DNA of 64,000 nucleotides from Escherichia coli (GTDB lineage: Bacteria; Pseudomonadota; Gammaproteobacteria; Enterobacterales; Enterobacteriaceae): the NCBI RefSeq assembly GCF_041886205.1, contig NZ_CP169029.1, one strand, 5' to 3'. The notes beneath the pieces are model-generated. The model was not told the origin of the DNA, made no database searches, and saw only the letters and a list, made by a program, of their open reading frames with translations. The position numbers and the translations under genes are program-made. The number at the start of each line of letters is the position of its first letter. Within the stretch, counting starts at the first letter, position 1. Positions 25,470 to 64,000 of the stretch are shown here, in pieces.

Positions 25470-27155
25470 ATGTACGATTTTAATCTGGTGTTGCTGCTGC
25501 TTCAGCAGATGTGCGTTTTTTTAGTCATTGCATGGTTAATGAGTAAAACGCCATTATTCATACCGTTAATGCAGGTCACGGTTCGTCTGCCGCATAAATT
25601 TCTCTGCTACATCGTCTTTTCCATCTTCTGCATCATGGGCACCTGGTTTGGGTTGCACATTGACGATTCTATTGCCAATACCCGTGCGATAGGCGCGGTA
25701 ATGGGCGGCTTACTCGGCGGTCCGGTCGTCGGTGGGCTGGTTGGTCTGACCGGCGGGTTACATCGATATTCGATGGGGGGCATGACCGCGTTAAGTTGCA
25801 TGATCTCGACCATCGTTGAAGGATTGCTCGGCGGCCTGGTACACAGCATCCTGATCCGCCGCGGGCGCACTGATAAAGTCTTTAACCCCATTACCGCCGG
25901 TGCCGTCACGTTCGTCGCTGAAATGGTGCAAATGCTGATCATCCTGGCGATCGCCCGACCTTATGAAGATGCGGTGCGTCTGGTGAGTAATATTGCTGCG
26001 CCAATGATGGTCACCAATACCGTCGGCGCGGCGCTGTTTATGCGTATATTGCTCGATAAACGCGCGATGTTTGAAAAATACACTTCGGCTTTTTCTGCCA
26101 CTGCGCTGAAAGTGGCGGCCTCGACGGAAGGCATTTTGCGCCAGGGGTTTAACGAAGTGAACAGCATGAAAGTGGCACAGGTGCTGTATCAGGAGCTGGA
26201 TATTGGTGCAGTCGCGATTACCGATCGAGAGAAATTGCTGGCCTTTACCGGAATTGGTGACGACCACCATTTACCCGGCAAACCGATTTCTTCGACTTAC
26301 ACCTTAAAAGCGATTGAAACCGGTGAAGTGGTCTACGCTGATGGCAACGAAGTACCTTATCGTTGCTCTTTGCATCCGCAATGCAAACTGGGGTCGACGC
26401 TGGTAATTCCGTTGCGTGGTGAAAATCAGCGGGTGATGGGCACCATCAAATTGTATGAAGCCAAAAACCGTTTATTCAGTTCAATCAACCGCACGCTGGG
26501 CGAGGGGATTGCGCAACTGCTTTCGGCGCAGATCCTCGCCGGGCAATATGAGCGGCAAAAAGCGATGCTCACCCAGTCAGAGATCAAACTGCTTCACGCC
26601 CAGGTGAACCCCCATTTTTTGTTTAATGCGCTTAACACCATTAAAGCGGTGATTCGCCGCGACAGCGAACAGGCCAGCCAGCTGGTGCAATATCTTTCCA
26701 CTTTTTTCCGCAAAAACTTAAAGCGGCCTTCGGAGTTTGTTACTCTCGCCGACGAAATTGAACATGTGAACGCTTATCTGCAAATTGAAAAGGCGCGCTT
26801 CCAGTCGCGGTTGCAGGTCAACATTGCTATTCCGCAAGAATTATCCCAGCAGCAATTGCCCGCGTTTACCCTGCAACCGATAGTGGAAAACGCCATTAAA
26901 CATGGGACATCACAACTGCTGGATACAGGGCGAGTGGCAATCAGCGCCCGACGTGAGGGGCAACATTTGATGCTGGAGATCGAAGACAATGCCGGTTTGT
27001 ATCAACCGGTAACCAATGCCAGTGGGCTGGGGATGAATCTGGTGGATAAGCGTTTACGTGAACGGTTTGGCGATGACTATGGGATAAGCGTCGCCTGTGA
27101 GCCTGATAGTTACACCCGAATAACGTTACGACTACCATGGAGGGACGAGGCATGA
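25470..27155 (+). CDS. btsS: LytS-type sensor histidine kinase BtsS (YehU)
   Basis: ATG start [13 protein letters not shown] gives 561 aa. 5TM-LytS N-terminus, GAF region and the histidine-kinase box [10 protein letters not shown]. Confidence 0.92.
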
Positions 27156-36202: not shown

Positions 36203-39200
36203 TTAATGGAAAATGACGTCGGGTGCGCTTAACGCCTCACTCAAATCAAACACATCAAGTGCGGCAAAAGTGACGGATTTATTGTCACGGTACACCCGAA
36301 GAGAACGGAAGCTCATCAGCGCTTTGCTATCAGCACTGTAGTAGTTAAAACCGGGTGAAAACTTAAGGACCAGCCGGTACTCACCTAAGTCATAGACAAA
36401 TGCGTCCTCATAGCCTGACTCCCAGCCTTTGTATCGCATTCCCATAAGCTGCCCAACGGTAGCGGATTTACCTTCCCAGCGAGTCAGGCTGTTACTGGTT
36501 GACTCGTCAGGTGTGAGCAGCACCGTGCGGCGCGACAACTGGCGAAAAGGCGGCATAATTTCGTAATCGGCAAAAAGCTGTGCAAATTCACTGCGCATTT
36601 CTGCTGTCATTTCTAACGGGTGGGCAATGCCAATCAGAGCGTCCGCAGGCAGGTCAATGGGCTCATCTTGTGCATTGCAGAATTCCCCCTCTGCGGCCAC
36701 ACGAAAGGTGTTGAGTAAACGACGTGGTTCATTTGCCGGATAAACCCCCCATATTAATCGCTGGGTAACCAGGCGGGTAAAGGGATGATTAACAAAAAGA
36801 GAATGAAAATCTGCCAGCGACCAGCGTCGGGTGGTGCGTAGGGCAGTTTCAAGACGCGGGAGCAGGTTTTTGCTCACCTGAGTGGCATCTTTTTTTAGCC
36901 CTTTTAGTCGGGCCAGTGCCTCGGGCGCTTTCAGTTGATCGTCATCGGCGCGCAACCGGGGAACACTTTTCTGGCGAACGTTTTGTTGATCGTAGATAAC
37001 CGGGTTGAGGTTTTCATCGAAGCGAACGGTAAACTGCCGGGGACCAAAATCAAAAATCAACGCCTGCGGATCATCAAGACCCAGTGTTGGGACTAATCTG
37101 TCCGCTAACTCTTCCTGGCTTAGCCCGCGATTTTCTGCGACCACCTGAAGAAATTCCGCTGCGTTTTCACGTAATGAAGAGGATTTCGCCCGTTGTGATA
37201 CATGATGCAGCTGTATCAGCGCCATATCATTATTCATCAGGGTGAGTATATTCAGACCACTGACAGCACGGGCAGATTTGCCTTCTTGTGGCCAAGCGAG
37301 GATCTGTGTTGTTAGATCCCGTGCCGTGCTTTCGTCACCAAAGAGACTTAACGCCAGAAATGCCCAGTTGTCTTTTGCGGGGGCACCAGCTTGTTGCCAT
37401 GCGGTGAAGAGATCCCAGGCAAAAGCTGCCAGCGTTTGCGGCTGGCAGAACGTTTTCAGTTGTTCCAGCCCGCTATAAAAACGTCCCCCTTGGGTAAAGC
37501 GCAGCATTTCGCCAATAATTTCCAGAGCGTCATCGGTAACAGGTTGATTATTAGTGATAAGGCGCGGCCTGGACCACATTTGCGGATGCCAGAAATCAGG
37601 GGCTTTTGGAATGCGTGCCGGGTAAATCTCTATTGGACTCTGTTTAAGTAATTGTTCCAGGGCAGGCCATACATCAGCGCGATCCCAGCGGTTTGCCACG
37701 GTTTGTAGTAATACGCCATGTCCCTGTTCGTAAAGTAAACGCAGGGCAAGTAATGCAGCTTCGCTATTATCGCTGGATTTAGTGAAGACAAGAGGGATAA
37801 GTGCAGTAGCCGTATGTTCCGGCCATTGTAAAATCCACTGGCGAGCCAGATCACGCTGCGCCGCGAAACGTCGCCAGACGCGGGCAACAGGCAGCGCCAG
37901 TTCTGTTGCGCCGAAATGAATCAGCAGCGGAAATATCTCTTGTGGATGTCGGGCAAAGGCGGTGTTTAATCCAGGCAAAGCATCGGTAGCCAGCACACTT
38001 AACAGATATTCCACCCCAGTGTAATGAAAATCAGCATCGACAATTTGTTGCCAGCACGATACCGCCATTTCGCGCGGCATCTGCGCGATAAGGTACAGAT
38101 TCCAAATCCCCCAACGCTTTTCATTACCATAGTAAAATTCGTGCTGAAAAGTTCGCCACCCTTCCATCAACGCAATGCAATCTTGTGCCAGTAATGCTTT
38201 GGTGGCTTCTTCACGATACTGTTTAGATTTGGCCTGATGCGCGTGATAAGTACGCAATAGTCCTATTGATGTGTATTCTTGCAGTTGCTGAGCATCAAAG
38301 GCATCCAACTGTCCATTAAGAAGATGCTTATTAAATTCCAGGCTATGAACGTCAAAACCTAATTCCCGCAAGAAGGTATCCGCCCCTCTCTTAGCAATAC
38401 GTTCGTCAAAAGACATGGCGCTAAAATGGTCAATTGCAGTTTGCTGTTCCGGCGTCCAGTGTTTATTCGGCGACCTGTACGTTTGCGGTGCAAGCGTAAG
38501 ATCAGGCAGCGAAAAGTGAGGTATGGAAGTCTTTTTCTTCCTCCCACGCCATGGTGGTGAAACGAGGATTTCAGGCATTTGGCTGTTATCGGTACTATCA
38601 ATAACCGGTTTGGGCGGTGCCAATAAATAACTATTCAGTACTGCCCGGGCTTGAGTACTTAACCACTGCATCACCTCTTCTGCCAGTTGTGGCTGCGATG
38701 CCATCAGCGTTTGTAACAGCGTACGCCAGTATTCATCTCGAGCTTTTTGCTGGGCAGGCAGCTTTTTGTCTTCGATGATTGGATAACCAGGGCGGGCTGG
38801 TGGTTCTTTTAACGCCAACAGTTCTGCCAGTGCCGCGAGCGTCGCGTGGGGGAAGTTTTTACTGTATTTAGCCACACGTTGCAGGCTGGGTTTGTTTTTA
38901 TCAGCCACCAGTAGCAAGGTGCGGATGACCTGCGGATGGTTAATTTGTACCAACAGACTGCCGCAATCTTCTTTATGGGCATACATCGCGAGGCGCGGAA
39001 TGGCTGCCAGTCCTTGTTCGCGCAAAAGGGCGGCGCAGGCCGCGTAGCCGAAGTGGTTTTCATGCGACATGTAGCTGGCTTCGCGATCGCTAAATATATC
39101 CTGACTCCAGTAGTGATCGAGTTTCCTCACCGCTGTGGGGTCATTAGCAACAACTTTTAGCCACTCCTTAGAATGATAATGAGTCCGTGGGCATTCAAGG

Positions 39201-39850
39201 CCTATCAACTCATTGGCGATTTCTGGTTTTTCCGGGAGGATCAGCGCAATAAAAGGGCGGCGAACTTTGGTTATTCCTGGCAGTGCGGCAATGAGTTTGT
39301 CGGCGCAACGCTGCCAGCAGCTTTCCTCTGCCAGAGAGAGATGCTTACGCAGTCGGAGATCGAATTCGTTATAGGTTTCTGATCGATAACCATAGCCATA
39401 GTCCTCGTTCTGATACTGCAATGTCACTACCAGAGGATCACTCTCATAACACCGCGCAATAAACTGGCGTGCAATCACCACCTCAGTCGCATATTCCAGT
39501 CCCTCTTGTTGGACGATTTCGTCGAGCAACTGTTGGCTGTCATTTTGCGCGATACAGGCTAGTGCCGCCATTGTGCGGGCCGGGACTGAGGGTTTGTGTT
39601 CGCCGATCAAGTTGATGGCCTGCGTAATGGCGGACTGCCACTCCAGTGAAAAATTTTCATAACGCCAGACAATGTTTTTTTTCTTCTCAGCTTTTTGTAG
39701 CAATTCATCACCCAGTGTCTGAATGATGCTTTCAGTGATAACAGGCACCGGTTCGCCCGGCCATTTGCGATGACTGAGTGGTGTTTTGCCTTTTTTATAT
39801 TTCAGTTCCAGTTGGGCGTTATCCGCCAGCCACGGTAATTCCTTGTCCAT
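36203..39850 (-). CDS. yehI: MolR/YehI-family giant protein YehI (1215 aa); lacks the N-terminal WGR-like module
   Basis: Uninterrupted 1215-aa ORF. It aligns to the upstream paralogue from about residue 97 (LPWLADNAQ vs LPWLADGAQ) through the C-terminus. The start is 9 nt after the upstream stop, and that spacer contains aggaaagag (SD). Confidence 0.88.
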   Translation of the reverse strand: MDKELPWLADNAQLELKYKKGKTPLSHRKWPGEPVPVITESIIQTLGDELLQKAEKKKNIVWRYENFSLEWQSAITQAINLIGEHKPSVPARTMAALACIAQNDSQQLLDEIVQQEGLEYATEVVIARQFIARCYESDPLVVTLQYQNEDYGYGYRSETYNEFDLRLRKHLSLAEESCWQRCADKLIAALPGITKVRRPFIALILPEKPEIANELIGLECPRTHYHSKEWLKVVANDPTAVRKLDHYWSQDIFSDREASYMSHENHFGYAACAALLREQGLAAIPRLAMYAHKEDCGSLLVQINHPQVIRTLLLVADKNKPSLQRVAKYSKNFPHATLAALAELLALKEPPARPGYPIIEDKKLPAQQKARDEYWRTLLQTLMASQPQLAEEVMQWLSTQARAVLNSYLLAPPKPVIDSTDNSQMPEILVSPPWRGRKKKTSIPHFSLPDLTLAPQTYRSPNKHWTPEQQTAIDHFSAMSFDERIAKRGADTFLRELGFDVHSLEFNKHLLNGQLDAFDAQQLQEYTSIGLLRTYHAHQAKSKQYREEATKALLAQDCIALMEGWRTFQHEFYYGNEKRWGIWNLYLIAQMPREMAVSCWQQIVDADFHYTGVEYLLSVLATDALPGLNTAFARHPQEIFPLLIHFGATELALPVARVWRRFAAQRDLARQWILQWPEHTATALIPLVFTKSSDNSEAALLALRLLYEQGHGVLLQTVANRWDRADVWPALEQLLKQSPIEIYPARIPKAPDFWHPQMWSRPRLITNNQPVTDDALEIIGEMLRFTQGGRFYSGLEQLKTFCQPQTLAAFAWDLFTAWQQAGAPAKDNWAFLALSLFGDESTARDLTTQILAWPQEGKSARAVSGLNILTLMNNDMALIQLHHVSQRAKSSSLRENAAEFLQVVAENRGLSQEELADRLVPTLGLDDPQALIFDFGPRQFTVRFDENLNPVIYDQQNVRQKSVPRLRADDDQLKAPEALARLKGLKKDATQVSKNLLPRLETALRTTRRWSLADFHSLFVNHPFTRLVTQRLIWGVYPANEPRRLLNTFRVAAEGEFCNAQDEPIDLPADALIGIAHPLEMTAEMRSEFAQLFADYEIMPPFRQLSRRTVLLTPDESTSNSLTRWEGKSATVGQLMGMRYKGWESGYEDAFVYDLGEYRLVLKFSPGFNYYSADSKALMSFRSLRVYRDNKSVTFAALDVFDLSEALSAPDVIFH

Positions 39851-39859
39851 GCTCTTTCC

Positions 39860-42800
39860 TTATTCAAACAGGGCTTCAATATCGTTAATTAGCTCGCTGG
39901 CGGTGATGGCATCGAGTACGGAGAACTGCGCTTCCTGTGTTGAATTACTCCCCCAGCCATAGCTTTCCGCTTTGCCTTCCCATAACCACAGCTTGCTTAA
40001 GAGCTGCTCAGCGCTAAGTTCGGCTGGTGACATACCCACCGCAAAACCTTCGTCGATTTCCATGATTAACGACCAGCGACCCAAAGGTTTGATCATCCAT
40101 CCGATCCAGCCTCCATCCTGTGGTTCGCCCTTTATCCAGCCTTTATTCGCCAGCCCCATGACCCGACCACTCGGGCATTTTCTGCCTGCCCAGCGGGTCA
40201 GTTCACTGGCATTGCGCTCGGCTTCTGTCAGGGCGTAGCTGTTACGGTCGAGCTGGCGGAACGGTGGTAGCAGTTCGTAGTCGGCAAAAAGCTGACCAAA
40301 GGCGGCAGCATCCGTTGGTGATATTTCCAGAACGTGAGGAGTGCCGATAGAGATATCGCCTTCCGGCAGGGTGAAAAGATCATCGTCAGCGGTGCTGTAG
40401 CTGTTATCTTCTGCTACGCGAAAGCAAGCCAGTAGCTGGTTTTCGGCGCTATAAACGCCCCAAATCAGACGGCGGGTTAAGTGACGAACCAGCGGATGCT
40501 CAACCAGGAAGAGCTGGAAGTTTTCCAGCGACCAGCGGCGGCGCAGGCACATGGCGGATTCCAGCCTTGCTACCTGCTGGGCGGCGACGGTACGCGCATC
40601 TTTTTTCAGCAGTTTGTAGCGGTTAACAGCATCGTTCGCCTGTGATTCATCATCGCTTTTGTTTGGTTTGGGCAGGTCTTTCAGACGGCTGCCGGAAGCG
40701 TCACGCACAAACGGTTTTAAGGTTTCATCAAAGCTGACGGTGAACTGGCGTGGGCCGAAATCCAGCAGCAACGAACCGTTATCATCCAGACCGAGATCTG
40801 GTGCTAACCGATCTTCAAGCTCCGCCACCGTGAGTTCGCGGCTCTCGGCAATATCGGCAATTTTCTCTTTTGCCCGCTCCTGTAAAGCTTTGAATTTCAG
40901 TTTCTGAGCAATGCCGTTAAGCTGCATCAGAGCAATATCACTACCGATAGCGGCGAGGATATCAAGCCCGACGGTGGCGCGTTTATGCTGGGATTCGCCA
41001 GGCCAGGCGCGGATTAATGGCGTCAGTTTGCGGGCGGTGTCATCGTTACCGAGAACGCCTAACGCAGTGAACGCCCAACTCTCTTTCGACGGCGCGCCAG
41101 CGGTCTGCCAGGCGGTAAACAGATCCCAGGCAAATTCAGCCAGTGAGTCGGCGGTACAGGCGTCTTTCACCTGTAATATTCCCGGATACAGAACCTCTTC
41201 CTGAGGGAAGCGGAGCATTTCACCGAGGTGGAGGAGGGCTCTATCTGGCAGTGATTGGGCGTTTGCTTTTAATACCGGGCGCGTCCAGAGCGATGGTTGA
41301 TAAAAGGCCGGAAGAGTGGGGATTTTTGTCGGGTGATTATCTAAGGGATCGAGCGCAAGCAGAGCGTTCACCGCATCGGTTACTTCCGGCTGGTTATAAC
41401 GTCGGGCGATTTCTTGCAGTAATGGCTGATGACCGTTTTCGGTAAGCATACGCAAGGCAGCGCGGGCGTTATCCTGTGCTTCACCGGCTTTGCCGAGCGC
41501 CGCAGGCAGCAGGCCGGTAAGGGCATGTTCCGGGTATTTCAACAGCCAGCTACGGGCGTTTTCGCGTAGCGTTTTGAGTTTGTTGAAGGCACGGGCAATC
41601 AGTGGCGCTAATTCGATAGCCGCAAAATATTGTGCTACAGGCAGCGCTTCTTGCGGATAGCGAGATGCTGAGTGGATAAAACCTGTTAAACCAGCAAGTC
41701 GAAGATGCAACATTACTTGTGTTGCACCTGTATGTGGTTCTTTACTAAGGATGTTCCACATCTCGATAGCTTTATTAATGGGTAAAACATGGAGTGAAGA
41801 AAGATTCCATTCGCCCTGATAAGGGGAGTTATAGGACTTAAAAGCATCAATCAGCGCTGAATAATCTTCACGCTGCAAGGCATCCAGTGCTATTTCTGGA
41901 ACATCAATATAGCCTCTATGTTTGTTCCAATCCCAGCGGTTGAATCCCAGGGAGGTCAGAAAAGCTTTTTCTCCCTCAGCTTGCTGATGAGGTTGCCAGT
42001 TATGCTGCACTTGCAGTGTTTTGCTTTTTGTTTCATTTATTGTACAGAAGGATTCTAGGGATAATGGTGCTAAATCCAGCACCGAAATCGTCGATTTTTT
42101 CTTTTTAGCCAGCCAGGGCGGTGAGACTAATACGGCAGGCAGCATATCAGCGTTCGCATAAACTGAAGGTTGTGTCAGTTGTTGCTGGCATGACTTAAGA
42201 ACGGTAACTGCCGGGGCAGATAGCCAGGAGATTACCCGTTCTGCTAATGTTGGTTGTGAGATAAGCATTGTCATTAGCATCATGCGCCAGCGCTTTTCAT
42301 CTTTTTTTGCCAGAAGTTCTGCTAATGCCGCCAGCGCTGCATGTGGAAAGCGAACGAAAGCCTTTGTCATGCGATCGTGGCAACGCTTTCCCTGCTCGCT
42401 TGCATGGATAAGTAGTGTAAGTGCCTGCGGGTGGTTGATATGCATCAACACTTCACCACATGTGTCACCAGCAGCGTAAGGAGCAAAACGGGCCAGCGCA
42501 GCGACACCTTGCTCCTTGAGTATCGTTGCGCACCAGATTTTACCTCCGTAATAATCATCAAATACCTGCCCAGGCTGTCCTGGATAGTATTTTCCCAGTT
42601 CTGCCAATACCTGCTCGTCAGCGGCCGTCAGTTTTAGCCATTCCAGCGCATATAACCCTTTTTGTCCGCAAAGATGTCTGGCAATCTCATGAGCTATTTC
42701 TGGTTTTTCCGGCAACAATAGTGCAACCAGCGGCTGGTGCCAGGTGGGCATGTTTCCGAGAGCGGCAATCAGTTTGTCGGCGCAGCGCTGCCATACATCG

Positions 42801-43618
42801 TCATTTGCAAGTGAGAGATGCTTACGCAGGCGCATTTCAACCGAAGCGAAGCGTAACAGATAGCCAGGCTGCCTGTTATCCGGGGTAACCGTAATGAGAT
42901 GGGCATCATAATCCCAGTCGAAGCGGATGAATTGCAATGCAATGACAACCTCAGTGGCATATTCCAGACCACCTTCCTGGACAATTTGATCCATTAACTC
43001 TTCATGATCGTTACGATTGAAGCCTTGTTCCAGCGCAACCAGTACCGCCAGTACCATCGGAGGTAGCGTGGTGCTAATTGGCGAGTCGATAAGGCCTACT
43101 GCTTGTGTAATTGCCTGCTGCCAGTCGAGTGAACAGGTACTGTAATCGAAGGTGAGCACCTTTTTAAAACGCCGGTGAGTATTCGCGGCAACGGTGCGTA
43201 GCAGGGTTAATTCATCCTCCTGCTGCACCGGATCGCCAGGCCAGCGTCGATGACTGAGTGTGGTTGGCGCAATCTCTGTCGGTAACATGATTTGGGCACC
43301 GTCTGCCAGCCAGGGGAGGAGGTCACCAGCAAATGCTGGTTTGTCTTGTGGCAAAGGGGTAATTTCAGGGCATTCAATAACCTGGCCGGGTGCAAATGTC
43401 GCTGTCATCACGGATACTTCTTCTACGTAGCCCTTTTTTGTTTTCTCCGCAATCAGCTTCAGCTCCGCTTTTTCCGCCGCCGCAGCATCTGCAAAGCTTT
43501 TTACCTGACTTTGCCCGTTACTGCCGACTTTACCCCAGTTAATATGCAGCTCGTTTCCCTGCTGCTCCACCGCCCAGAATTTATGTGATTTTTCGTCCTG
43601 ATAAATATAGGTTTTCAT
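39860..43618 (-). CDS. Intact MolR-family protein (1252 aa): N-terminal WGR-like domain plus a long helical/DUF4132-type body
   Basis: Uninterrupted ORF. The N-terminus MKTYIYQDEKSHKFWAVEQQGNELHINWGKVGSNGQSQVKSF fits the WGR-domain pattern (FW..., WG+xG..GQ). The C-terminal roughly 500 aa are about 75-80% identical to the neighbouring split paralogue. Confidence 0.85.
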   Translation of the reverse strand: MKTYIYQDEKSHKFWAVEQQGNELHINWGKVGSNGQSQVKSFADAAAAEKAELKLIAEKTKKGYVEEVSVMTATFAPGQVIECPEITPLPQDKPAFAGDLLPWLADGAQIMLPTEIAPTTLSHRRWPGDPVQQEDELTLLRTVAANTHRRFKKVLTFDYSTCSLDWQQAITQAVGLIDSPISTTLPPMVLAVLVALEQGFNRNDHEELMDQIVQEGGLEYATEVVIALQFIRFDWDYDAHLITVTPDNRQPGYLLRFASVEMRLRKHLSLANDDVWQRCADKLIAALGNMPTWHQPLVALLLPEKPEIAHEIARHLCGQKGLYALEWLKLTAADEQVLAELGKYYPGQPGQVFDDYYGGKIWCATILKEQGVAALARFAPYAAGDTCGEVLMHINHPQALTLLIHASEQGKRCHDRMTKAFVRFPHAALAALAELLAKKDEKRWRMMLMTMLISQPTLAERVISWLSAPAVTVLKSCQQQLTQPSVYANADMLPAVLVSPPWLAKKKKSTISVLDLAPLSLESFCTINETKSKTLQVQHNWQPHQQAEGEKAFLTSLGFNRWDWNKHRGYIDVPEIALDALQREDYSALIDAFKSYNSPYQGEWNLSSLHVLPINKAIEMWNILSKEPHTGATQVMLHLRLAGLTGFIHSASRYPQEALPVAQYFAAIELAPLIARAFNKLKTLRENARSWLLKYPEHALTGLLPAALGKAGEAQDNARAALRMLTENGHQPLLQEIARRYNQPEVTDAVNALLALDPLDNHPTKIPTLPAFYQPSLWTRPVLKANAQSLPDRALLHLGEMLRFPQEEVLYPGILQVKDACTADSLAEFAWDLFTAWQTAGAPSKESWAFTALGVLGNDDTARKLTPLIRAWPGESQHKRATVGLDILAAIGSDIALMQLNGIAQKLKFKALQERAKEKIADIAESRELTVAELEDRLAPDLGLDDNGSLLLDFGPRQFTVSFDETLKPFVRDASGSRLKDLPKPNKSDDESQANDAVNRYKLLKKDARTVAAQQVARLESAMCLRRRWSLENFQLFLVEHPLVRHLTRRLIWGVYSAENQLLACFRVAEDNSYSTADDDLFTLPEGDISIGTPHVLEISPTDAAAFGQLFADYELLPPFRQLDRNSYALTEAERNASELTRWAGRKCPSGRVMGLANKGWIKGEPQDGGWIGWMIKPLGRWSLIMEIDEGFAVGMSPAELSAEQLLSKLWLWEGKAESYGWGSNSTQEAQFSVLDAITASELINDIEALFE

Positions 43619-43630
43619 TGCTAAATCCTT

Positions 43631-45820
43631 TTAATCAAACAGTGATTCAATATCGTTAATCAGCTCGCTGGCGGTGATGTCGTCGAGCACGGAGAAGGGA
43701 TAAACCGATTTGCGCGGCGTCAGTTTGCACAACTGAATGTGCTCAATTTTTTGGCTATCGCTGATTTCGGTGACGGGCAATCCAACGCAGAAGCCTGGTG
43801 TCACACTCAGTTCGACGTAGCCATCATCCACAGATTTATAAAATGAGTAATAGCCGCCACCATCCAGCACATCGCCCCGTTGCCAGCCTTTATTCATCAG
43901 CCCGGCGACGCGCCCACTCGCTGCCTGGCGACCAGCCCAGCGCTGCAAATCGCTGCTGCTTTTTTCTGTCTCAGAGAGCTGAGACCAGGGGCGATCAAGT
44001 TGACTGAATGGTGGCAATAGTTCGTAGTCAGAGAACAGTTGTGCAAATTCAGCAGCCTGCGGGGCCGGGATTTCCAGTACATGCGGGATACCGATACTGC
44101 CCTGCGCAAGGGTTAACGGGTTATCCTGACCGTCGCTAAAACTGCCATCCTCCGCCACGCGGAAACAGGAAATAAGCTGATTATCAGCGTCATAAATGCC
44201 CCACATCAGACGTTGGGTGATATGACGAACCAGGGGATGCTCAACCAGAAACAGGCGGAACTGTTCTGCAGTCCAGCGGCGACGCTGACACATGGCGGCT
44301 TCCAGACGCGAAATCTGTTGTGCAGCTACCGTGCGGACATCTTTTTTCAACAACTTGTAGCGATTTACCGCTTCCTCAGCCAGCGTTTCATCATCGCTTT
44401 TGTTCGGTTTGGGCAGATCTTTCAGACGGTTGCCGGAAGCTTCGCGCACAAACGGTTTTAAGGATTCATCAAAGCTGACGGTGAACAGGCGTGGGCCGAA
44501 ATCCAGCAGTAGTGAGCCGTTATCATCCAGACCGAGATCGGGGGCTAACCGGTCTTCCATCTCTGCGACGGTGAGCTGGCGGCTTTCGGCAATCTGGGCG
44601 ATTTTAGTTCTAGCCTGATCCTGCAAGGCTTTAAATTTTAGCTTTTGCGCAATACCGTTAAGTTGCATCAGGGCGATATCGCTGCCGATAGCAGCAAGAA
44701 TATCCAGCCCGACAGTGGCGCGTTTATGCTGAGATTCCCCCGGCCATGCGCGGATGAGCGGGGTGAGTTTGCGGGCGGTGTCATCGTTACCCAGAATCCC
44801 CAGTGCGGTAAATGCCCAGTTATCTTTGGCTGACCCGCTTGCAATCTCCCAGCTCAAGAAGAGATCCCAGGCGAAATCGGCAAGAGACTGCGGGGTACAG
44901 GCCTCGATTACCTGTGTTATCCCCGGGTAAAGGGTGGCTTCGCGGGGAAAAGAGAGCATGGTGCACAGTTGCAGGATAGCTGAATCCGGAAGTGCCTTGC
45001 CGTTACTGCGCAGAAGCGGGCGGTGCCATACTTCAGGGGTACACCAGGCGGGGAGTTTAGCGATTTTCTGCGGAAAATTATCGAGGGGGTCGCTGTTAAG
45101 AACATCTAACAAACCCGTAAGCACTTCTGCCTGATTATAGCGGTGGGCAATTTCTTCCATTAACGGCTGATGCCCATGATGAGCCAGATAGCGAATTGCC
45201 GTAGCGGCGTCTTCACGCTCACTACCTGCTTTTCCCAGCACGGAAGGCAGCAGGCCCGTAATGGCATGTTCCGGATAGGTTAACAACCAACGTTCAGCAA
45301 CATCACGTACAGATTTAAGCTGACGAAAGGCGCGAGCCATTAAGGGGGCTACTTCGGTTGCGCCAAAACGTGCCGCTAAAGGAATGGCTTCCTGAGGTAC
45401 GACTAAGGCGCGACGCAGCAAGCCGGGCAATGTCGGAAGACCGTAATATTCCACTACTTCACATGCGTTAATCAGATGTAGGTGAGTCAGTGCGTTCCAT
45501 ATTTTCAGTGCTTTATTTTCTGATAACTGAAGCAATACCGACACATTGACAAGGATATGACTTGCCCACCGAGGTTTATCCCAGATCTTTAATAAAGCTT
45601 CGTAATTGTCCTGCTCGAAAAAATCAATGGCAGCCTGAGGTATACCCCAACCAAGCTCTTCGCAATGGAAGTTCAACAAATCCAGGATATCTTTCGCTGA
45701 TGGGGATGGCGCAGATGGCTCAGTCAGATTTTTTGTTGCGGGGATAGATTCAGGGGGGGAAGAGGTAATACCCGGAGAGTGAGGTTGATACCAGCAATCT
45801 TTTTCTTTTTTTCCAACCAT
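43631..45820 (-). pseudogene. C-terminal portion (729-codon ORF) of a third MolR-family gene, split by a frameshift
   Basis: Homologous to residues of about 530-1252 of the intact paralogue. Overlaps the N-terminal ORF by 97 nt in another frame. Adding one C to the C7 run at 45753-45759 fuses both ORFs into 1246 codons. Confidence 0.75.
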
Positions 45821-47370
45821 GAAGGGGCGATCAATATACTGGGTAATTCATTCTTATGAGCAATTTTTTCGATGGACATAAGCTGAGGAAAATAACTAAA
45901 TAAAATTTGTTGCTGTTTTTCGTCAAGCCAGGGAAGCGTTTTATGTAAGGCTTGCGCATTACCCAAGATGATGCGCTGCAGTAAACGATAATAGTGAGAG
46001 TTATTTGTGTAATTTAAGGCTTTTGTTAATGCATAAAGTGCAGCTTCAGGATGTAAATTTGTTGCGTGTTCCACTTCACTGATACATTCTTCTTTTATTA
46101 ATATATTAATGGCGTCAGGATGATTAACTTGTGTAATTAGATTTTTAACTGAATAACTATCCTTTATCCATGGCTGAAGAAGTGGAAGAGCTTTTACCCC
46201 TCGTTCACGCAGTAATGTCGCAGTGCATTTTTCCGCCGTCTGCCAGTCGTTATAGCGCTTAAGTTGGTTAAGATTCATCAATTCATTGAGTGCCTGCGGA
46301 TCTGTGGCAACGATATCCAACCATTCCATTTCTGGGTAATTAGCACATTGCACTAAGTCAAAGACAATTTGATTAGCAATTTCAGGTTGTTCAGGCAAAA
46401 GAAAACCTATTAAAGGGCGTTTACGTGGAGACAGGGAAGGCAACGCTTGAGTAAGCTTTTTCATGCACCGTTGCCATGTTTTTTCATCAATACGCGAGAG
46501 ATGATTTCGCAAGTGAAAATCTACAGTGCTGAAGCCGAATTCAAAACGTTGTTCTGATATTGTGTTACTTAGAATAAGCGTTGGTACGCAATTTTTTGTA
46601 AAAAAATTGTATCCCATGCGAACATACAAAAGGCATTTATCTAAAGCTTCACAATTTCCCGGATCTTGATTTTGATCATCTGATATCTGAATTTGCTGTA
46701 ATAGCAAGACTAATTCGGTCGCGTATTCTACCCCATGCTGTTGCGCCAGATAATCAAAAAGATCATTAGCGCTATCGCTATCTTGCATAAGAAACTTGAC
46801 CAGCAAAAAGAATGCATTGGAGAAAATCGAACCGTCTATATTTTTCTGCTGAACGCGCATGATTGCTTCATCCCGGCCTCGTTGCCATTCCGGGCGGCAG
46901 TCACTCACATCAAAATGCTGTAATTGTGCAAGAAAATAGTATTCCTCATATTTGTTTTCCCATAAGAGTGACCATAACGAGATATCTTTAGCAAACGTCC
47001 TGACACTGTCGGCTGGGAATTTCCTACTGCTAAATACTCTCTTTGTTTCGAGAATGATTGGTTCAAGGTCCGCAATCCACGGTGGTGTGTCGACATCAGT
47101 AATAATTGGATGTTGTTCGCTATCATCAGCTGTGGTGGGAACAGTTATCAGCATGTTTATATCGTCAGTCGATTTTACATACCCCTTCTTCACCTTCTCC
47201 GCAATCAACTTCAGCTCCGCTTTTTCCGCCGTTGCAGCATCCGCAAAACTTTTTACCTGGCTTTGCCCTTGGGTGCCAACTTTTCCCCAACTGATATGCA
47301 ACTCGTTTCCCTGTTGCTCCACCGCCCAGAATTTATGTGATTTTTCGTCCTGATAGATAAAGCGTCTCAT
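45724..47370 (-). pseudogene. N-terminal portion (548-codon ORF) of the split MolR-family gene: WGR-like domain plus an AT-rich divergent region
   Basis: N-terminus MRRFIYQDEKSHKFWAVEQQGNELHISWGKVGTQGQSQVKSF. It ends just after PSWLEKKKKIAGINLTL, which is homologous to PPWLAKKKKSTISVLDL in the intact copy. Confidence 0.75.
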
Positions 47371-52921: not shown

Positions 52922-54956
52922 TTGCAGGAGCTGCCTATGTTGAGAATGACCCCACTTGCATCAGCAATCGTAGCGTTATTGCTCGGCATTGAAGCTTATG
53001 CAGCTGAAGAAACCTTTGATACCCATTTTATGATAGGTGGAATGAAAGACCAGCAGGTTGCAAATATTCGTCTTGATGATAATCAACCCTTACCTGGGCA
53101 GTATGACATCGATATTTATGTCAATAAGCAATGGCGCGGGAAATATGAGATTATTGTTAAAGACAACCCGCAAGAAACATGTTTATCAAGAGAGGTTATC
53201 AAGCGGTTAGGCATTAATAGCGATAACTTCGCCAGCGGTAAGCAATGTTTAACATTTGAGCAACTTGTTCAGGGTGGGAGCTATACCTGGGATATCGGGG
53301 TTTTTCGTCTCGATTTCAGTGTCCCGCAGGCCTGGGTGGAAGAACTGGAAAGTGGCTATGTTCCACCGGAAAACTGGGAGCGGGGTATTAATGCGTTTTA
53401 TACCTCTTATTATCTGAGTCAGTATTACAGTGACTATAAAGCGTCGGGTAATAGTAAGAGTACATATGTACGTTTTAACAGCGGGTTAAATTTACTGGGG
53501 TGGCAACTGCATTCTGATGCCAGTTTCAGTAAAACAAATAACAATCCAGGGGTGTGGAAAAGTAATACCCTGTATCTGGAACGTGGATTTGCCCAACTTC
53601 TCGGCACGCTTCGCGTGGGTGATATGTACACATCAAGCGATATTTTTGATTCTGTTCGCTTCAGCGGTGTGCGGTTGTTTCGTGATATGCAGATGTTGCC
53701 TAACTCGAAACAAAATTTTACGCCACGGGTGCAGGGGATTGCTCAGAGTAACGCGCTGGTAACTATTGAACAGAACGGTTTTGTCGTTTATCAGAAAGAG
53801 GTTCCTCCTGGCCCGTTCGCGATTACAGATTTGCAGTTGGCCGGTGGTGGAGCAGATCTTGATGTCAGCGTGAAAGAGGCGGACGGCTCGGTAACCACCT
53901 ATCTGGTGCCTTATGCAGCGGTGCCAAATATGCTGCAACCCGGCGTGTCGAAATATGATTTTGCGGCGGGTCGTAGCCATATTGAAGGGGCGAGCAAACA
54001 AAGTGATTTTGTCCAGGCGGGTTATCAGTATGGTTTTAATAATTTATTGACGCTGTATGGTGGCTCGATGGTCGCGAATAATTATTACGCGTTTACTTTG
54101 GGGACTGGCTGGAATACACGCATTGGTGCCATTTCCGTCGATGCCACGAAGTCGCATAGTAAACAAGACAACGACGATGTGTTTGACGGGCAAAGTTATC
54201 AAATTGCCTACAACAAATTTGTGAGCCAAACGTCGACGCGTTTTGGTCTGGCGGCCTGGCGTTATTCATCGCGTGATTACCGGACATTTAATGATCACGT
54301 TTGGGCAAACAATAAAGATAATTATCGCCGTGATGAAAACGATGTCTATGACATTGCCGATTATTACCAGAACGATTTTGGCCGTAAAAATAGCTTCTCT
54401 GCCAATATGAGCCAGTCATTGCCAGAAGGCTGGGGGTCTGTGTCCTTAAGTACGTTATGGCGAGATTACTGGGGGCGTAGCGGCAGCAGTAAGGATTATC
54501 AGTTGAGTTATTCCAATAACTGGCGGCGGATAAGCTATATCCTCGCGGCAAGCCAGGCGTATGACGAGAATCATCATGAAGAGAAACGTTTTAATATTTT
54601 TATATCGATTCCCTTTGATTGGGGTGATGACGTTACGACGCCTCGTCGGCAAATATATATGTCTAACTCAACGACGTTTGATGATCAGGGGTTTGCCTCA
54701 AATAATACGGGATTATCAGGAACCGTTGGAAGCCGGGATCAGTTTAACTATGGGGTCAACCTGAGTTATCAGAATCAGGGAAATGAAACGACAGCTGGGG
54801 CGAATTTGACCTGGAACGCGCCGGTTGCGACAGTGAATGGCAGTTATAGTCAGTCGAGTACTTATCGACAGGCTGGAGCCAGTGTTTCAGGGGGCATTGT
54901 CGCCTGGTCGGGGGGCGTTAATCTGGCGAACCGTCTTTCCGGGTAATGACTCCAAC

Positions 54957-55460
54957 TTATTGATAGTGTTTTATGTTCAGATAATGCCCGATAACTTTGT
55001 CATGCAGCTCCACCGATTTTGAGAACGACAGTGACTTCCTGCCCAGCCTTGCCAGATGCTGCCTCAGATTCAGGTTATGCCGCTCAATGCGCTGCGTATA
55101 TCGCTTGCTGATAACGTGCAGTTCTCCCTTCAGGCGTGATTCATAAAGCGGCCAGCCATCCGTCATCCATACCACGACCTCAAAGGCCGACAGCAGGCCC
55201 AGAAGACGCTCCAGCGTCGCCATAGTGCGTTCACCGAATACGTGCGCAACAACCGTCTTCCGGAGCCTGTCATACGCGTAAAACAGCCAGCGCTGGCGCG
55301 ATTTAGCCCCGACATAGCCCCACTGTTCGTCCATTTCCGCGCAGACGATGACGTCACTGCCCGGCTGTATGCGCGAGGTTACCGACTGCGGCCTGAGTTT
55401 TTTAAGTGACGTAAAATCGTGTTGAGGCCAACGCCCATAATGCGGGCAGTTGCCCGGCAT
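54957..55460 (-). CDS. insB: IS1 InsB' frame (fused to InsA by -1 frameshifting to give the InsAB' transposase)
   Basis: 167-aa ORF overlapping the insA 3' end in the -1 frame. Confidence 0.93.
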
Positions 55461-55654
55461 CCAACGCCATTCATGGCCATATCAATGATTTTCTGGTGCG
55501 TACCGGGTTGAGAAGCGGTGTAAGTGAACTGCAGTTGCCATGTTTTACGGCAGTGAGAGCAGAGATAGCGCTGATGTCCGGCGGTGCTTTTGCCGTTACG
55601 TACCACCCCGTCAGTAGCTGAACAGGAGGGACAGCTGATAGAAACAGAAGCCAC
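55379..55654 (-). CDS. insA: IS1 InsA (transposition inhibitor / N-terminal part of the transposase)
   Basis: 91-aa [42 protein letters not shown] (zinc finger plus HTH). Confidence 0.95.
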
Positions 55655-56204
55655 TGGAGCACCTCAAAAACACCATCATACACTAAATCAGTAAGTTGGC
55701 AGCATCACCGTCTTTCCGAAACGTTTGCTGTGATGAATGCGCCAGGAATTAAAGATGCTTATGTCAATGGGCAAAAATATCGCACAACAAACCTTAATGG
55801 AGTGGTGGTATACGACGGAATGACACCTTATCGGGAAAATCACCTGATGCTGGATGTGTCGCAAAGCGATAGCGAAGCAGAATTACGTGGCAACCGGAAA
55901 ATTGCCGCCCCTTATCGCGGCGCGGTTGTACTGGTTAATTTTGATACCGATCAGCGCAAGCCATGGTTTATAAAAGCGTTAAGAGCAGATGGGCAACCAT
56001 TAACGTTTGGTTATGAAGTCAATGATATCCATGGTCATAATATTGGCGTTGTCGGCCAGGGAAGTCAGTTATTTATTCGCACCAATGAAGTACCGCCAGC
56101 GGTTAATGTAGCAATTGATAAGCAACAAGGACTTTCATGCACAATCACCTTCGGTAATGAGATTGATGAAAGTAGAAATTATATCTGTCGGTGAGAGGTG
56201 GAAT

Positions 56205-57659: not shown

Positions 57660-57880
57660 AAACTCTCCACTTTGGGGATCTGTAATATCAGTCGCATATC
57701 TTTCCTGCCATACAATATAACTGACAAGCGATATTTTGTTAGTGATCCCATGATTTCGTAAAAAGTGTAAATGAAAGGATGCCCTAAAAGCATCCTTAGC
57801 GAGCAGAGAGTCAGCGGAAATAGCTGATTTAAGAATCATCCTGGGCTGAAGATAACATGCAAGCCTAAAGGATTGAGTTA

Positions 57881-58727
57881 TCACATTATGCCCATGAAGC
57901 CATGTACGCCCATATACACACCGACTAAGCCAATCAACAGACTGGAAAAATAGGGGGCGCGTTTAGCGAGAGTGTTAAATCCGCTCCAGCGTTTTGCGAC
58001 CTGCTGAACGCTGATTGCTGCGCCAACGCCTACGGTGACAAGCGTTAACGCCAGGCCAATGCTGAAACTGACGACCAGTGTTGCGCCCAGTGTCAGGGCT
58101 TTCAACTGAATGCATATCAACAGCACGGTAATTGCTGCCGGGCAGGGGATAAGGCCACCGGTTAAGCCAAATAACAAAATTTGCCAGTTGGTGACCTCTC
58201 TACCATCAAAGCGTCGTTTAATGTCATTGGCATGGGCTCGTGCATGGGCATCCTGATACTCGCCATGTTCGTGATGGTGATGATGTCCATGGTCGAGGTG
58301 ATGTTCGTGGTCTTGATGATGTTCGTGATCGTGATGATGGTGATGATGCTCATAATCATGCCCGTGCATATTCTCCAGCCAGTTGCGTTCGCCGCGCCAG
58401 GTACGCCAGAACATCCAGAACGCGGTGCCAATAATGATCACTGCGGAAATCAGCTGGAGCCACGGTTCTGCTGATTGAGCAGTAAAGCGCTTACTGATCA
58501 CCATCCCGCCAAAGGCAATCAACCAGACCACCGCGGTATGCGAAATGGTTGCTGCCAGTCCGAGCATCACCGCCTGTTTAATGGTGCCTTTGGATGGCGA
58601 TGATAAACGCCGCCATCATCGTTTTTGAGTGCCCTGGTTCCAGGCCATGAAGCGCACCAAGTAAGATGGCGCTGGGGATGAAGAACCAGGCGTTTCCTTG
58701 CTGAAGAAGAGTTGTAAATTCGGTCAT
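57881..58727 (-). pseudogene. rcnA: Ni/Co efflux protein RcnA, frameshifted by a 1-nt insertion near codon 46
   Basis: From the ATG at 58727: MTEFTTLLQQGNAWFFIPSAILLGALHGLEPGHSKTMMAAFIIAI, then QRHH*. The frame of the rest (…VMLGLAATISHTAVVW to the end, track ORF 57881..58570) is reached by deleting one G of the GG at 58592-58593. His-rich loop present. Confidence 0.85.
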
Positions 58728-58764: not shown

Positions 58765-58799
58765 TACTCCCCCCCAGTACCTGATACTCCCCCCCAGTA
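58765..58799. promoter_or_regulatory. Two RcnR operator dyads (TACT-G6-N-AGTA type) in the rcnA-rcnR divergent promoter
   Basis: tactcccccccagta occurs at 58765-58779 and again at 58785-58799. This matches the published RcnR recognition pattern. Confidence 0.85.
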
Positions 58800-60992: not shown

Positions 60993-61811
60993 ATGCAGCT
61001 AAGAATCACCAGTCGAAAAAAACTCACCGCTTTATTATGCGCTCTTGGGCTAATTTCCATCGTTGCGATTCATCCGCGTCAGACGGTGAATTTTTTCTAT
61101 TCGACAGCAATTCAGATTAAAGACTACATCCACTTCTACGGTTATCGCCCGGTTAAATCTTTCGCTATTCGCATTCCTGCCAGTTACACCATTCACGGAA
61201 TAGATGTTTCGCGCTGGCAGGAACGGATCGACTGGCAGCGGGTGGCAAAAATGCGCGATAACGGTATTCGCTTACAATTTGCCTTTCTTAAGGCGACGGA
61301 AGGCGAAAAGCTGGTGGACCCCTATTTTTCGCGTAACTGGCAACTAAGCCGCGAAAATGGCCTGCTGCGCGGGGCGTATCATTATTTTTCCCCGTCGGTA
61401 TCCGCTTCAGTTCAGGCGAGATTATTTCTGCAAACGGTGGATTTCTCACAAGGCGATTTCCCTGCCGTACTGGACGTAGAAGAACGGGGAAAATTATCGG
61501 CAAAAGAATTACGCAAGCGGGTAAGTCAGTGGCTAAAAATGGTAGAAAAACGCACGGGAAAAAAGCCGATTATTTACTCAGGAGCCGTTTTTTATCACAC
61601 GAATCTGGCGGGCTATTTTAATGAATATCCGTGGTGGGTGGCTCACTATTATCAACGTCGTCCGGACAATGACGGAATGGCCTGGCGCTTCTGGCAGCAT
61701 TCCGACCGTGGACAGGTAGATGGCATCAATGGTCCGGTGGATTTTAATGTGTTTAATGGCACGGTGGAGGAGTTGCAGACATTCGTTGATGGGATTAAAG
61801 AAACGCCTTAA
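60993..61811 (+). CDS. yegX: GH25-family lysozyme-like protein YegX
   Basis: ORF with an N-terminal anchor and a GH25 pattern (GIDVSRWQ...DW...). I prefer the start MQLRITSRKK (272 aa). The track start at 60984 is an alternative. Confidence 0.8.
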   Translation: MQLRITSRKKLTALLCALGLISIVAIHPRQTVNFFYSTAIQIKDYIHFYGYRPVKSFAIRIPASYTIHGIDVSRWQERIDWQRVAKMRDNGIRLQFAFLKATEGEKLVDPYFSRNWQLSRENGLLRGAYHYFSPSVSASVQARLFLQTVDFSQGDFPAVLDVEERGKLSAKELRKRVSQWLKMVEKRTGKKPIIYSGAVFYHTNLAGYFNEYPWWVAHYYQRRPDNDGMAWRFWQHSDRGQVDGINGPVDFNVFNGTVEELQTFVDGIKETP

Positions 61812-61862
61812 ATAAGAAGCAGTGATATACTCCCACCAGACTCCCCGGCAGGAAAAAGACAA

Positions 61863-62609
61863 ATGGAACAAGCGCATACCCAGCTGATTGCCCAACTGAA
61901 CGAGCGTATTTTAGCGGCGGATAACACGCCGCTTTATATTAAGTTTGCCGAAACGGTAAAAAATGCCGTGCGCAGCGGGGTGCTGGAGCATGGCAATATT
62001 TTGCCCGGTGAGCGTGATTTAAGTCAGTTAACCGGCGTTTCGCGCATTACGGTGCGCAAGGCGATGCAGGCGCTGGAAGAAGAGGGTGTGGTGACGCGTT
62101 CGCGCGGTTACGGCACGCAGATCAACAACATCTTCGAATACTCGTTGAAAGAAGCGCGAGGTTTTTCTCAGCAGGTGGTATTGCGCGGGAAAAAGCCCGA
62201 TACGCTATGGGTTAACAAGCGTGTCGTGAAATGTCCCGAAGAAGTCGCGCAGCAGCTGGCGGTCGAAGCAGGAAGTGATGTCTTTTTGCTTAAGCGTATT
62301 CGCTATGTCGATGAAGAAGCGGTATCGATTGAGGAATCGTGGGTTCCGGCGCATTTAATTCATGATGTTGATGCCATCGGGATTTCACTTTATGACTATT
62401 TCCGCAGCCAGCACATTTACCCACAACGTACGCGTTCCCGCGTTAGCGCCCGGATGCCGGATGCCGAGTTTCAGTCACATATTCAGTTAGATAGCAAAAT
62501 ACCGGTGCTGGTGATCAAGCAAGTGGCGCTTGACCAACAGCAACGGCCTATTGAGTACAGCATTAGCCACTGTCGCAGCGATCTATACGTTTTTGTGTGC
62601 GAGGAGTAG
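61863..62609 (+). CDS. yegW: GntR/HutC-family transcriptional regulator YegW
   Basis: 248-aa ORF. Winged HTH (LPGERDLSQLTGVSRITVRKAMQALEEEG) plus a UTRA-like C-terminus. Confidence 0.9.
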   Translation: MEQAHTQLIAQLNERILAADNTPLYIKFAETVKNAVRSGVLEHGNILPGERDLSQLTGVSRITVRKAMQALEEEGVVTRSRGYGTQINNIFEYSLKEARGFSQQVVLRGKKPDTLWVNKRVVKCPEEVAQQLAVEAGSDVFLLKRIRYVDEEAVSIEESWVPAHLIHDVDAIGISLYDYFRSQHIYPQRTRSRVSARMPDAEFQSHIQLDSKIPVLVIKQVALDQQQRPIEYSISHCRSDLYVFVCEE

Positions 62610-63548
62610 TTCCTCGCGCGTTGGCGCACAATCACCGCCCCGATGCCCGACAACCCACGACGCCACTGCATTGCCCAGTAATACGGCATCCGCCAGTGGC
62701 AGACCAGAGGCCAGCCCGGCAAGTACGCCACCGGCATGACTGTCGCCCGCCCCAATGGTGTCGACAACTTGCGTTGGAAATGCCGGAATGCAGCCAGAAG
62801 CGTCGTTGCTGAAATACCATGCGCCTTCTTTATCGAGACGAACGATCAACGGCGCGGCAAATTTCTCCTGCCATTGCTTGCCAAGTGTTGTTATCTCTGC
62901 GGATAAAGCAAAACGTTCGGCGGCAATCTCAGCCTCTTGACGATTGAGCGACACTAAAGGTCGACAGGCCATGATCCGCGCCAGTAATGCATCCGGGATA
63001 TCGCCAATACGTGGGCCAAAATCGATAAACGGCGTCACGTCTTGCAGCTCTTCCAGCCACTCCACTAACAATTCGCCGCAGGGCGAGGCCAGTTGATAAC
63101 CGGAAAAATAGAGCAGGCTGCCAGGCGCAACGGTTAATCGCGCCAGCCACTGGCGATTCCACTGATTTTCAACACCGCTGAATGACATAAAAGTGCGTTC
63201 GCCATCCGGCTCAACCAGCGCCAGACACCAGCCGTTATCACCTTCGGCGTTATCGATCAGGCTGATTAAGCCCTCTTTTGCCATCCGGTTGCGAATAATC
63301 TCCGCCCACACGCCCTGACCGAGCGGCAAGGCATTACCCGCTTCGATGCCGAGGCGCTTTAACGCCACGGCAATATTCAGTGCGCAGCCGCCAACGTTAA
63401 CGCTCTGCTGTTTCAGTTCGATATCGCACCCACGCCAGGGGAGGGCATAAGCGTCGGCGATCACATCAATGACCGCCGCGCCGACGACCATCACCGGCTG
63501 ACGCGAGGTTAATTCAGGCAGCAGCGTGTGTAATCGAGCGCCGCTCAT
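62583..63548 (-). CDS. yegV: PfkB-family sugar/nucleoside kinase YegV
   Basis: 321-aa ORF. PfkB signature DTIGAGDSHAGG. 27-nt convergent overlap with yegW and 4-nt overlap with yegU. Confidence 0.9.
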   Translation of the reverse strand: MSGARLHTLLPELTSRQPVMVVGAAVIDVIADAYALPWRGCDIELKQQSVNVGGCALNIAVALKRLGIEAGNALPLGQGVWAEIIRNRMAKEGLISLIDNAEGDNGWCLALVEPDGERTFMSFSGVENQWNRQWLARLTVAPGSLLYFSGYQLASPCGELLVEWLEELQDVTPFIDFGPRIGDIPDALLARIMACRPLVSLNRQEAEIAAERFALSAEITTLGKQWQEKFAAPLIVRLDKEGAWYFSNDASGCIPAFPTQVVDTIGAGDSHAGGVLAGLASGLPLADAVLLGNAVASWVVGHRGGDCAPTREELLLAHKNV

Positions 63549-64000
63549 ACCGCCTCCCGTTGTTGACGATATTTCGCCAGCGCTGTGGCATAGCGGTTGA
63601 AATCAAGCTGATTTACCGCATCCAGTTCCGCCTTTAACGCAGGATCGATAGCGTTAACGCCATGCAACGCGCCGCAAATCGCCGTCGCCATAGCGCCGAT
63701 GGTGTCTGTGTCGCCGCCAAGGTTAGCGCACAGGACGGCGCAGCGATTCGGGTCGGTTTGTGCCAGTTCAACCAGCGCAATGGCGCACGGAACGGACTCA
63801 ATAGTGCTGGTACCTGCGCCAACGACCTGGTAAAGCTGTTCGCTGGCGGATTCGGTGCCGTCGGCATTGCGCACAATTTTCAGCGCAATCTCCAGACGTG
63901 CTGCCAGTGAGGCGCTGAAGGTAGTGATGCGTTTTTGCTGTGCATGTCGCGCAATTGAAGGCAGGGAATCAACAATCGCTGACCAGCTTTCTCCGTCAAT
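63545..64000 (-). CDS. yegU: ADP-ribosylglycohydrolase-family protein YegU; C-terminal part only, the gene continues beyond the right edge
   Basis: The C-terminal sequence ...NLGGDTDTIGAMATAICGALHG is the ARH-family metal-binding motif. The frame is open to the window end. Confidence 0.85.
   Translation of the reverse strand: MDGESWSAIVDSLPSIARHAQQKRITTFSASLAARLEIALKIVRNADGTESASEQLYQVVGAGTSTIESVPCAIALVELAQTDPNRCAVLCANLGGDTDTIGAMATAICGALHGVNAIDPALKAELDAVNQLDFNRYATALAKYRQQREAV

Follow-up and report, generated by a model that had tools for sequence, protein, structure and literature searches.

A lost G beside a C7 run splits a WGR-DUF4132 paralogue in one Escherichia coli assembly

The name MolR is historical and comes from a supposed role in molybdate regulation. 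The closest described relative of the gene studied here is the molR (yehH/yehG) pseudogene of Escherichia coli K-12, which lies by yehI in the metG-yehI/yehK locus, combines a WGR domain with DUF4132 in about 1250 aa, is frameshifted, and has been described as "disrupted in K12" (PMC3950696). In ST131, a transposon (TnMB1860) is inserted in the region of the paralogue array (PMC9334617). Contingency loci with poly-G/C tracts, such as those of Neisseria, Haemophilus and Campylobacter, have a tract length that sets the gene ON or OFF and varies among close relatives, and genes of the dnaX type have an in-phase slippery heptamer (X_XXY_YYZ), a downstream RNA structure and conservation among homologues. 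Nanopore consensus errors in Enterobacteriaceae fell mainly into two classes, those at Dcm motifs and those in homopolymers (Wick et al. 2019; PMC6591954).

In this work, we analysed a window of 64,000 nucleotides of E. coli DNA, in which a WGR-DUF4132 gene (copy 1) is broken into two ORFs. Copy 1 shares with K-12 molR the two domains, the approximate length, the locus and a frameshift. However, molR matches copy 2 of the window and not copy 1, and it carries an internal stop and a frameshift near residue 938, for which reason a break at the same linker as in copy 1 was rejected. The lesion of copy 1, in contrast, lies at residue 541, affects a single base in one assembly and is accompanied by no other decay.

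The split gene and its paralogues

The window carries metG, copy 1 (split), copy 2, copy 3 (yehI-type) and then yehK-yehL-yehM-yehP-yehQ (Table 1). The minus-strand ORFs of 548 and 729 codons were recovered as an earlier note on this DNA had described them, overlapping by 97 nt in different frames, and the run of seven G on the plus strand was present where the note had placed it. The coding strand at the overlap reads ...CTCTTCCCCCCCTGAATC..., also given as ...GGAAAAAAAGAAAAAGATTGCTGGTATCAACCTCACTCTCCGGGTATTACCTCTTCCCCCCCTGAATC.... Both ORFs aligned with the intact copy 2, as had been claimed: the 548-aa ORF with residues 1-521 (E 3e-74), and residues 60-729 of the 729-aa ORF with residues 573-1252 at 59% identity. 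Pfam searches placed a WGR domain (PF05406) at residues 7-68 of the 548-aa ORF (E 3e-18, 66 bits against a cut-off of 22), a part that is also matched by PDB entry 2ra8, and DUF4132 (PF13569) at residues 463-646 of the 729-aa ORF (E 2e-48, 165 bits against a cut-off of 27). The note was right to see here a single WGR-DUF4132 gene that a -1 frameshift interrupts inside the overlap.

Table 1. Positions of the split gene, its paralogues and the features at the lesion in the window
Feature	Position	Strand	Remarks
Copy 1, WGR-DUF4132 ("MolR-like") paralogue	43631..47370	-	First gene after metG; frameshifted in the window
5' ORF, 548 aa	45724..47370	-	WGR domain and helical region; stop TGA at 45724-45726
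3' ORF, 729 aa (mechanical listing)	43631..45820	-	Carries DUF4132
A_AAA_AAG heptamer	45805..45811	-	In the overlap, in phase with the upstream frame; KKKK motif
C7 run (G7 on the plus strand)	45753..45759	-	Native in-frame length; encodes part of L-P-P; unchanged in the window
Lesion	45751..45751	-	Single G (C on the plus strand) where all relatives have GG
Copy 2, intact WGR-DUF4132 paralogue, 1252 aa	39860..43618	-	50% identical to copy 1; both domains; counterpart of the K-12 molR pseudogene
Copy 3, yehI-type DUF4132 paralogue, 1215 aa	36203..39850	-	Followed by yehK-yehL-yehM-yehP-yehQ

The frameshift falls after 541 native residues of copy 1, and the 548-aa ORF ends in a tail of 7 out-of-frame codons (NLSPQQKI). 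The native coding frame occupies only the part of the 729-aa ORF that lies 3' of position 45751. No Shine-Dalgarno sequence was visible at the ATG at 45820, and this start of the 729-aa ORF is an artefact of the ORF finder. The note's arithmetic, by which one added base gives 3741 nt, was correct, and the resulting ORF has 1246 codons; any single base inserted within the overlap gives the same length, and with one G put back, copy 1 measures 3741 nt and encodes 1246 aa.

Proteins of the MolR/YehI group are single polypeptides of about 1210-1270 aa encoded between metG and yehK-yehLMPQ. The position of copy 1 agrees with this according to the annotation of the near-identical region of strain wlxctx60, and its length agrees once the G is restored, although not as written (548 + 729). 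Judged by its domains, repaired length and locus, copy 1 is a member of the MolR/YehI WGR-DUF4132 family. NCBIfam and PDB searches matched nothing beyond the WGR domain, a PADLOC search with the three paralogues and yehL/M/P/Q gave no match to a defence system, and we found no evidence for a molybdate function of MolR-type proteins.

The WGR/DUF4132 tandem array (36203-47370) has two copies in K-12 and three in the window, and PT62, 6EVA, GF4-3 and Z142-6 carry further array copies upstream or downstream. The K-12 molR sequence is 67% identical to copy 2 over residues 1-939 and 98% identical over residues 938-1252, a mosaic pattern that suggests recombination or gene conversion among the paralogues.

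Position of the lesion and its state in relatives

To locate the lesion, we compared the window with the closest complete genome, wlxctx60. The results showed that the coding strand of the window reads CCCCCCC-TG-AATC where wlxctx60 reads CCCCCCC-TGG-AATC, so that CCCCCCCTGGAATC has become CCCCCCCTGAATC: one G of a GG pair was lost, two bases 3' of the C7 run. On the plus strand, the ancestral TTCCAGGGGGGG holds a Dcm motif, CCAGG, fused to the G7 run, and in the window, which reads TTCAGGGGGGG, this motif is destroyed. The sequence of the deleted state is CAGGGGGGG, and that of the undeleted state is CTGGAATC and CCAGGGGGGG. The native protein at the site reads LPLPPLESIPATK and not LPLPPPESIPATK.

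Fourteen sequences were read at the site: eight complete genomes, one metagenome contig, three drafts with 0 mismatches to the window over 13.6-15.8 kb, one draft with the same IS1 junction as the window and one IS-truncated copy. All fourteen keep TGG, and 12 of the 14 read C7 followed by TGG, among them wlxctx60, PT62, 2017.06.05CC, 6EVA, USMARC-49610, Z142-6, the metagenome contig, the three zero-mismatch drafts and GCA_000303635.2. Because these 12 relatives stay in frame, C7 is the normal in-frame length. GF4-3 reads TTTCCCCCC-TGG (TTTC6), a C-to-T change within the tract that preserves the reading frame, and its gene is intact. MB53 reads C6-TGG, in a copy 1 already truncated by IS1. The earlier note held that the gene is split exactly at the C7 run and that one extra C restores it; this has to be revised, given that the intact alleles also carry C7 and that the window has lost the adjacent G. 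The note had also set against its own reading the case of a non-homopolymer lesion, and this is essentially what we found, although the lesion lies two bases from the run and not at a distant site.

Protein look-ups distinguished the two repairs. The G-restored copy 1 had an exact protein match on 170 contigs and is annotated as an intact gene (WP_001252237.1) in wlxctx60 and 2017.06.05CC. The C8 repair proposed in the earlier note would read LPLPPPES at the site, where all members of the 90% cluster read across it have LPLPPLES, and the C8-repaired protein was absent from an exact look-up among about 15 billion proteins. Neither the 548-aa nor the 729-aa product was found by exact look-up among these proteins or 153 billion gene positions. 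A search for the site in the GTDB representative genomes, which let tract length and G count vary, returned 0 matches, a metagenome scan gave one contig in the intact state, and the copy-1 segment was carried by only 9 of 5426 complete E. coli genomes.

Two further observations were made among the relatives. The MB53 tract, near position 2600 of its segment, belongs to a copy that has lost its 5' half to IS1 and ISVsa5; its C6 is the only change of tract length seen among the relatives and reflects either the decay of a gene already dead or a sequencing error in the homopolymer. In USMARC-49610, RefSeq annotates copy 1 (NZ_CP104123.1, 1091-4831) as three partial pseudogene pieces, and independent lesions were considered there. 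They were rejected because the DNA is identical to that of the Z142-6 copy annotated as one intact 1246-aa CDS, so the pseudogene call is an annotation inconsistency and not decay.

We then assessed how old the deletion is. Over 63.2 kb, the window differs from wlxctx60 by 31 substitutions and exactly one indel, which is the copy-1 lesion, and copy 1 shows no other difference from the intact wlxctx60 allele across 3.7 kb. The note's statement that the distal part is conserved is borne out by this comparison, with the downstream half undecayed and 0 substitutions against the intact allele. GCA_000303635.2 has its yehB::IS1 junction in common with the window, is identical to it over 12,077 bp, and keeps the G. 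Since the relatives, the zero-mismatch drafts and this clone-mate all keep the G, the deletion is, on the assemblies compared, private to one of them and very recent; because GCA_000303635.2 has the junction yet keeps the G, the deletion arose later than the yehB::IS1 insertion or is not biological. An established pseudogene would carry a lesion common to several lineages and secondary lesions, neither of which was found here (0 mismatches to clone-mates over 12-16 kb). A fixed pseudogenising deletion, which the earlier note had offered as one explanation, is thus contradicted by a deletion that is private and is missing from the three 0-mismatch drafts and the yehB::IS1 assembly.

A complete IS1 of about 766 bp (54942-55706), with a duplicated CGTCTTTCC-type target, lies in the fimbrial usher gene yehB and truncates its product to 669 aa. 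The insertion is not in wlxctx60; its junction recurs in GCA_000303635.2 and, in Logan, in contigs from 11 samples, and is a useful clonal marker. Among the substitutions against wlxctx60, 4 of the 9 in the first 55 kb sit in copy 2 (3.8 kb), at 40544, 41721, 42954 and 43520, a local excess that may come from gene conversion or relaxed constraint. A further 20 of the 31 gather at 61469-63920, in the last 2.5 kb (yegX/yegW region), and this cluster looks like the boundary of a recombination tract. The substitutions within 33.9-55.0 kb are real polymorphisms and not basecalling noise, because independent drafts have them too, and none of the substitutions against wlxctx60, read by eye, fell within a Dcm motif.

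Phase variation and ribosomal frameshifting

The earlier note had also proposed slipped-strand phase variation, by which the C7 run would be a contingency tract that toggles the gene ON and OFF by its length. Several features recall the contingency loci of other bacteria: the gene belongs to a variable, multi-copy family and has a G/C homopolymer in its coding region, a frameshift lies within 2 nt of this run, and one relative, MB53, has C6. However, the OFF state here does not come from tract length; the tract is at its in-frame length of C7, unchanged, and the lost G lies outside it. The length is also near-invariant among close relatives, being C7 in 12 of 14, with the lone C6 in an IS1-truncated copy. 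GF4-3 interrupts the tract by a C-to-T change and is intact nonetheless, the opposite of selective tract maintenance, and copies 2 and 3 have no tract at the same linker. In addition, the exact intact protein is present on 170 contigs, and none of the members of the 90% cluster that were read ends at about 548 aa. Seven residues are a short tract for mismatch-repair-proficient E. coli. As far as the sequences compared here can tell, copy 1 is not a member of the contingency-locus class, and we consider phase variation at this site very improbable.

We next examined whether the break could be bypassed during translation. A -1 ribosomal slip at the A_AAA_AAG heptamer of the overlap would let the deleted allele make some full-length protein, its linker altered at about 19 residues. 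The heptamer, which lies 54 nt upstream of the lesion, is identical to that of dnaX and in the correct phase, and its -1 frame is that of the downstream ORF, open from 45820. A_AAA_AAG is reportedly the most slippery heptamer in E. coli. The other features of a dnaX-type site were not found, so that the likeness to dnaX is a resemblance only. The 80 nt after the site have an MFE of -8.3 kcal/mol, no better than that of shuffled sequences (mean -7.4, z -0.45), which indicates no stimulatory stem-loop, and no Shine-Dalgarno-like stimulator is visible upstream of the heptamer. The heptamer is also not conserved in copies 2 and 3, where KKKK/KKK is encoded in a non-slippery codon phasing. Moreover, the frameshift to be compensated is private to one assembly, and for this reason the heptamer cannot be its designed partner.

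Recoding as an explanation of the split is accordingly hard to credit. A combination in which the deletion is real and the gene is a pseudogene made leaky by the heptamer, the intact allele then making a WGR-only short isoform as in dnaX, is just as far-fetched. The heptamer is a coincidence of the KKKK motif and not a demonstrated recoding signal; it is possibly a site of low-level -1 slippage.

Consensus error or recent null mutation

The lost base was observed to be one G, outside the C7 run, in a single assembly and within a Dcm motif that abuts a homopolymer. We infer that the deletion most likely arose as an error of consensus or basecalling in a long-read assembly, with a probability of roughly 0.55. 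On the plus strand, the deleted C is the methylated cytosine of CCAGG or its neighbour, and a Dcm motif running straight into G7 is the hardest sequence context of the whole window, at which a base may have been dropped from the consensus. The organism would then make the normal 1246-aa protein, and there would be no biological split. The earlier note had counted a homopolymer sequencing error among its options, and we agree that a sequencing error is a live one.

The context of the lesion is exceptional within the window. The G-restored window holds 168 Dcm motifs, and the lesion site is the only one of them fused to a run longer than 5. Positions at most 3 nt from any homopolymer of at least 7 make up 0.37% of the window, and the closeness of the lesion to the C7 run is unlikely to be due to chance. 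A single-base indel that lies in a methylation-motif and homopolymer context, and that independent assemblies of the clone contradict, has the form of the nanopore errors described earlier (PMC6591954). In the data of 2019 the pattern was gross, whereas here the discrepancy is limited to 1 of 168 Dcm motifs, and an error would thus be residual after good basecalling or polishing. The window spans the complete IS1 and both of its flanks, where the short-read assemblies of relatives break, and thus it probably comes from a long-read assembly.

Runs of at least seven G or C occur three times in the window. Apart from the run at the lesion, they are TACT-C7-AGTA repeats in the rcnA-rcnR intergenic region, where two TACTCCCCCCCAGTA repeats lie 20 bp apart (58765-58799); we take these repeats to match the RcnR operator type (TACT-G6-N-AGTA). 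The neighbouring rcnA (about 57880-58720; 25606-26452 of the wlxctx60 segment) is "frameshifted" in the wlxctx60 annotation, and the window has the same sequence with no indel between the two. The rcnA frameshift is either a real feature common to both or an annotation effect of the His-rich repeat.

Some observations speak against a consensus error. The window matches its relatives at the other 17 homopolymers of at least 7 and at the remaining 167 Dcm motifs, which indicates a low per-base error rate of the assembly, and current R10.4.1 basecallers read CCWGG at about normal accuracy (PMC11610603). This accuracy weakens the methylation-error argument without removing it.

The deletion may instead be a real, very recent and isolate-specific null mutation, in which the change from GG to G leaves a WGR-only fragment. 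We regard this as possible, though we do not prefer it. The 63 kb compared contain no other indel, and copy 1 is dispensable, being carried by so few complete genomes. The array has been disrupted repeatedly in nature (K-12 molR, IS1 in MB53, the transposon in ST131), and Z142-6, 6EVA and PT62 have frameshifts or truncations in neighbouring copies; since array genes are often genuinely inactivated in E. coli, a real knockout would not be surprising. Against this, the allele is missing elsewhere, including the IS1-junction clone-mate and the three 0-SNP drafts, and with 0 SNPs to the nearest relatives very few true private indels are expected in 64 kb. Real -1 slippage mutations concentrate inside runs, which makes C7 a far likelier target than GG, and a GG dinucleotide beside a C7 run is a poor target for slippage. 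Finally, the lesion lies in the sole Dcm-plus-G7 context of the window, a location predicted by an error model and not by a mutation model.

A real deletion would leave a 548-aa WGR-only fragment as the product, and the distal 2.1 kb would probably be untranslated, given that no ribosome-binding site is visible at the ATG at 45820. Rho-dependent polarity on copies 2 and 3, which follow after gaps of 9-12 nt, may then result.

For the reading of assemblies, these results indicate that alleles should be compared before a homopolymer is blamed for a frameshift next to it: the "obvious" C8 repair leads to a nonexistent protein, while the correct repair leads to the one on 170 contigs. Where Dcm motifs are fused to homopolymers, long-read assemblies should be checked against the reads before a pseudogene or phase-variable locus is called. 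The split itself is a mundane single-base frameshift or consensus error, in a locus whose disruption is already known in K-12 and ST131. It would mean no more than the loss, in one isolate, of one of three redundant paralogues, and the finding carries little biological weight.
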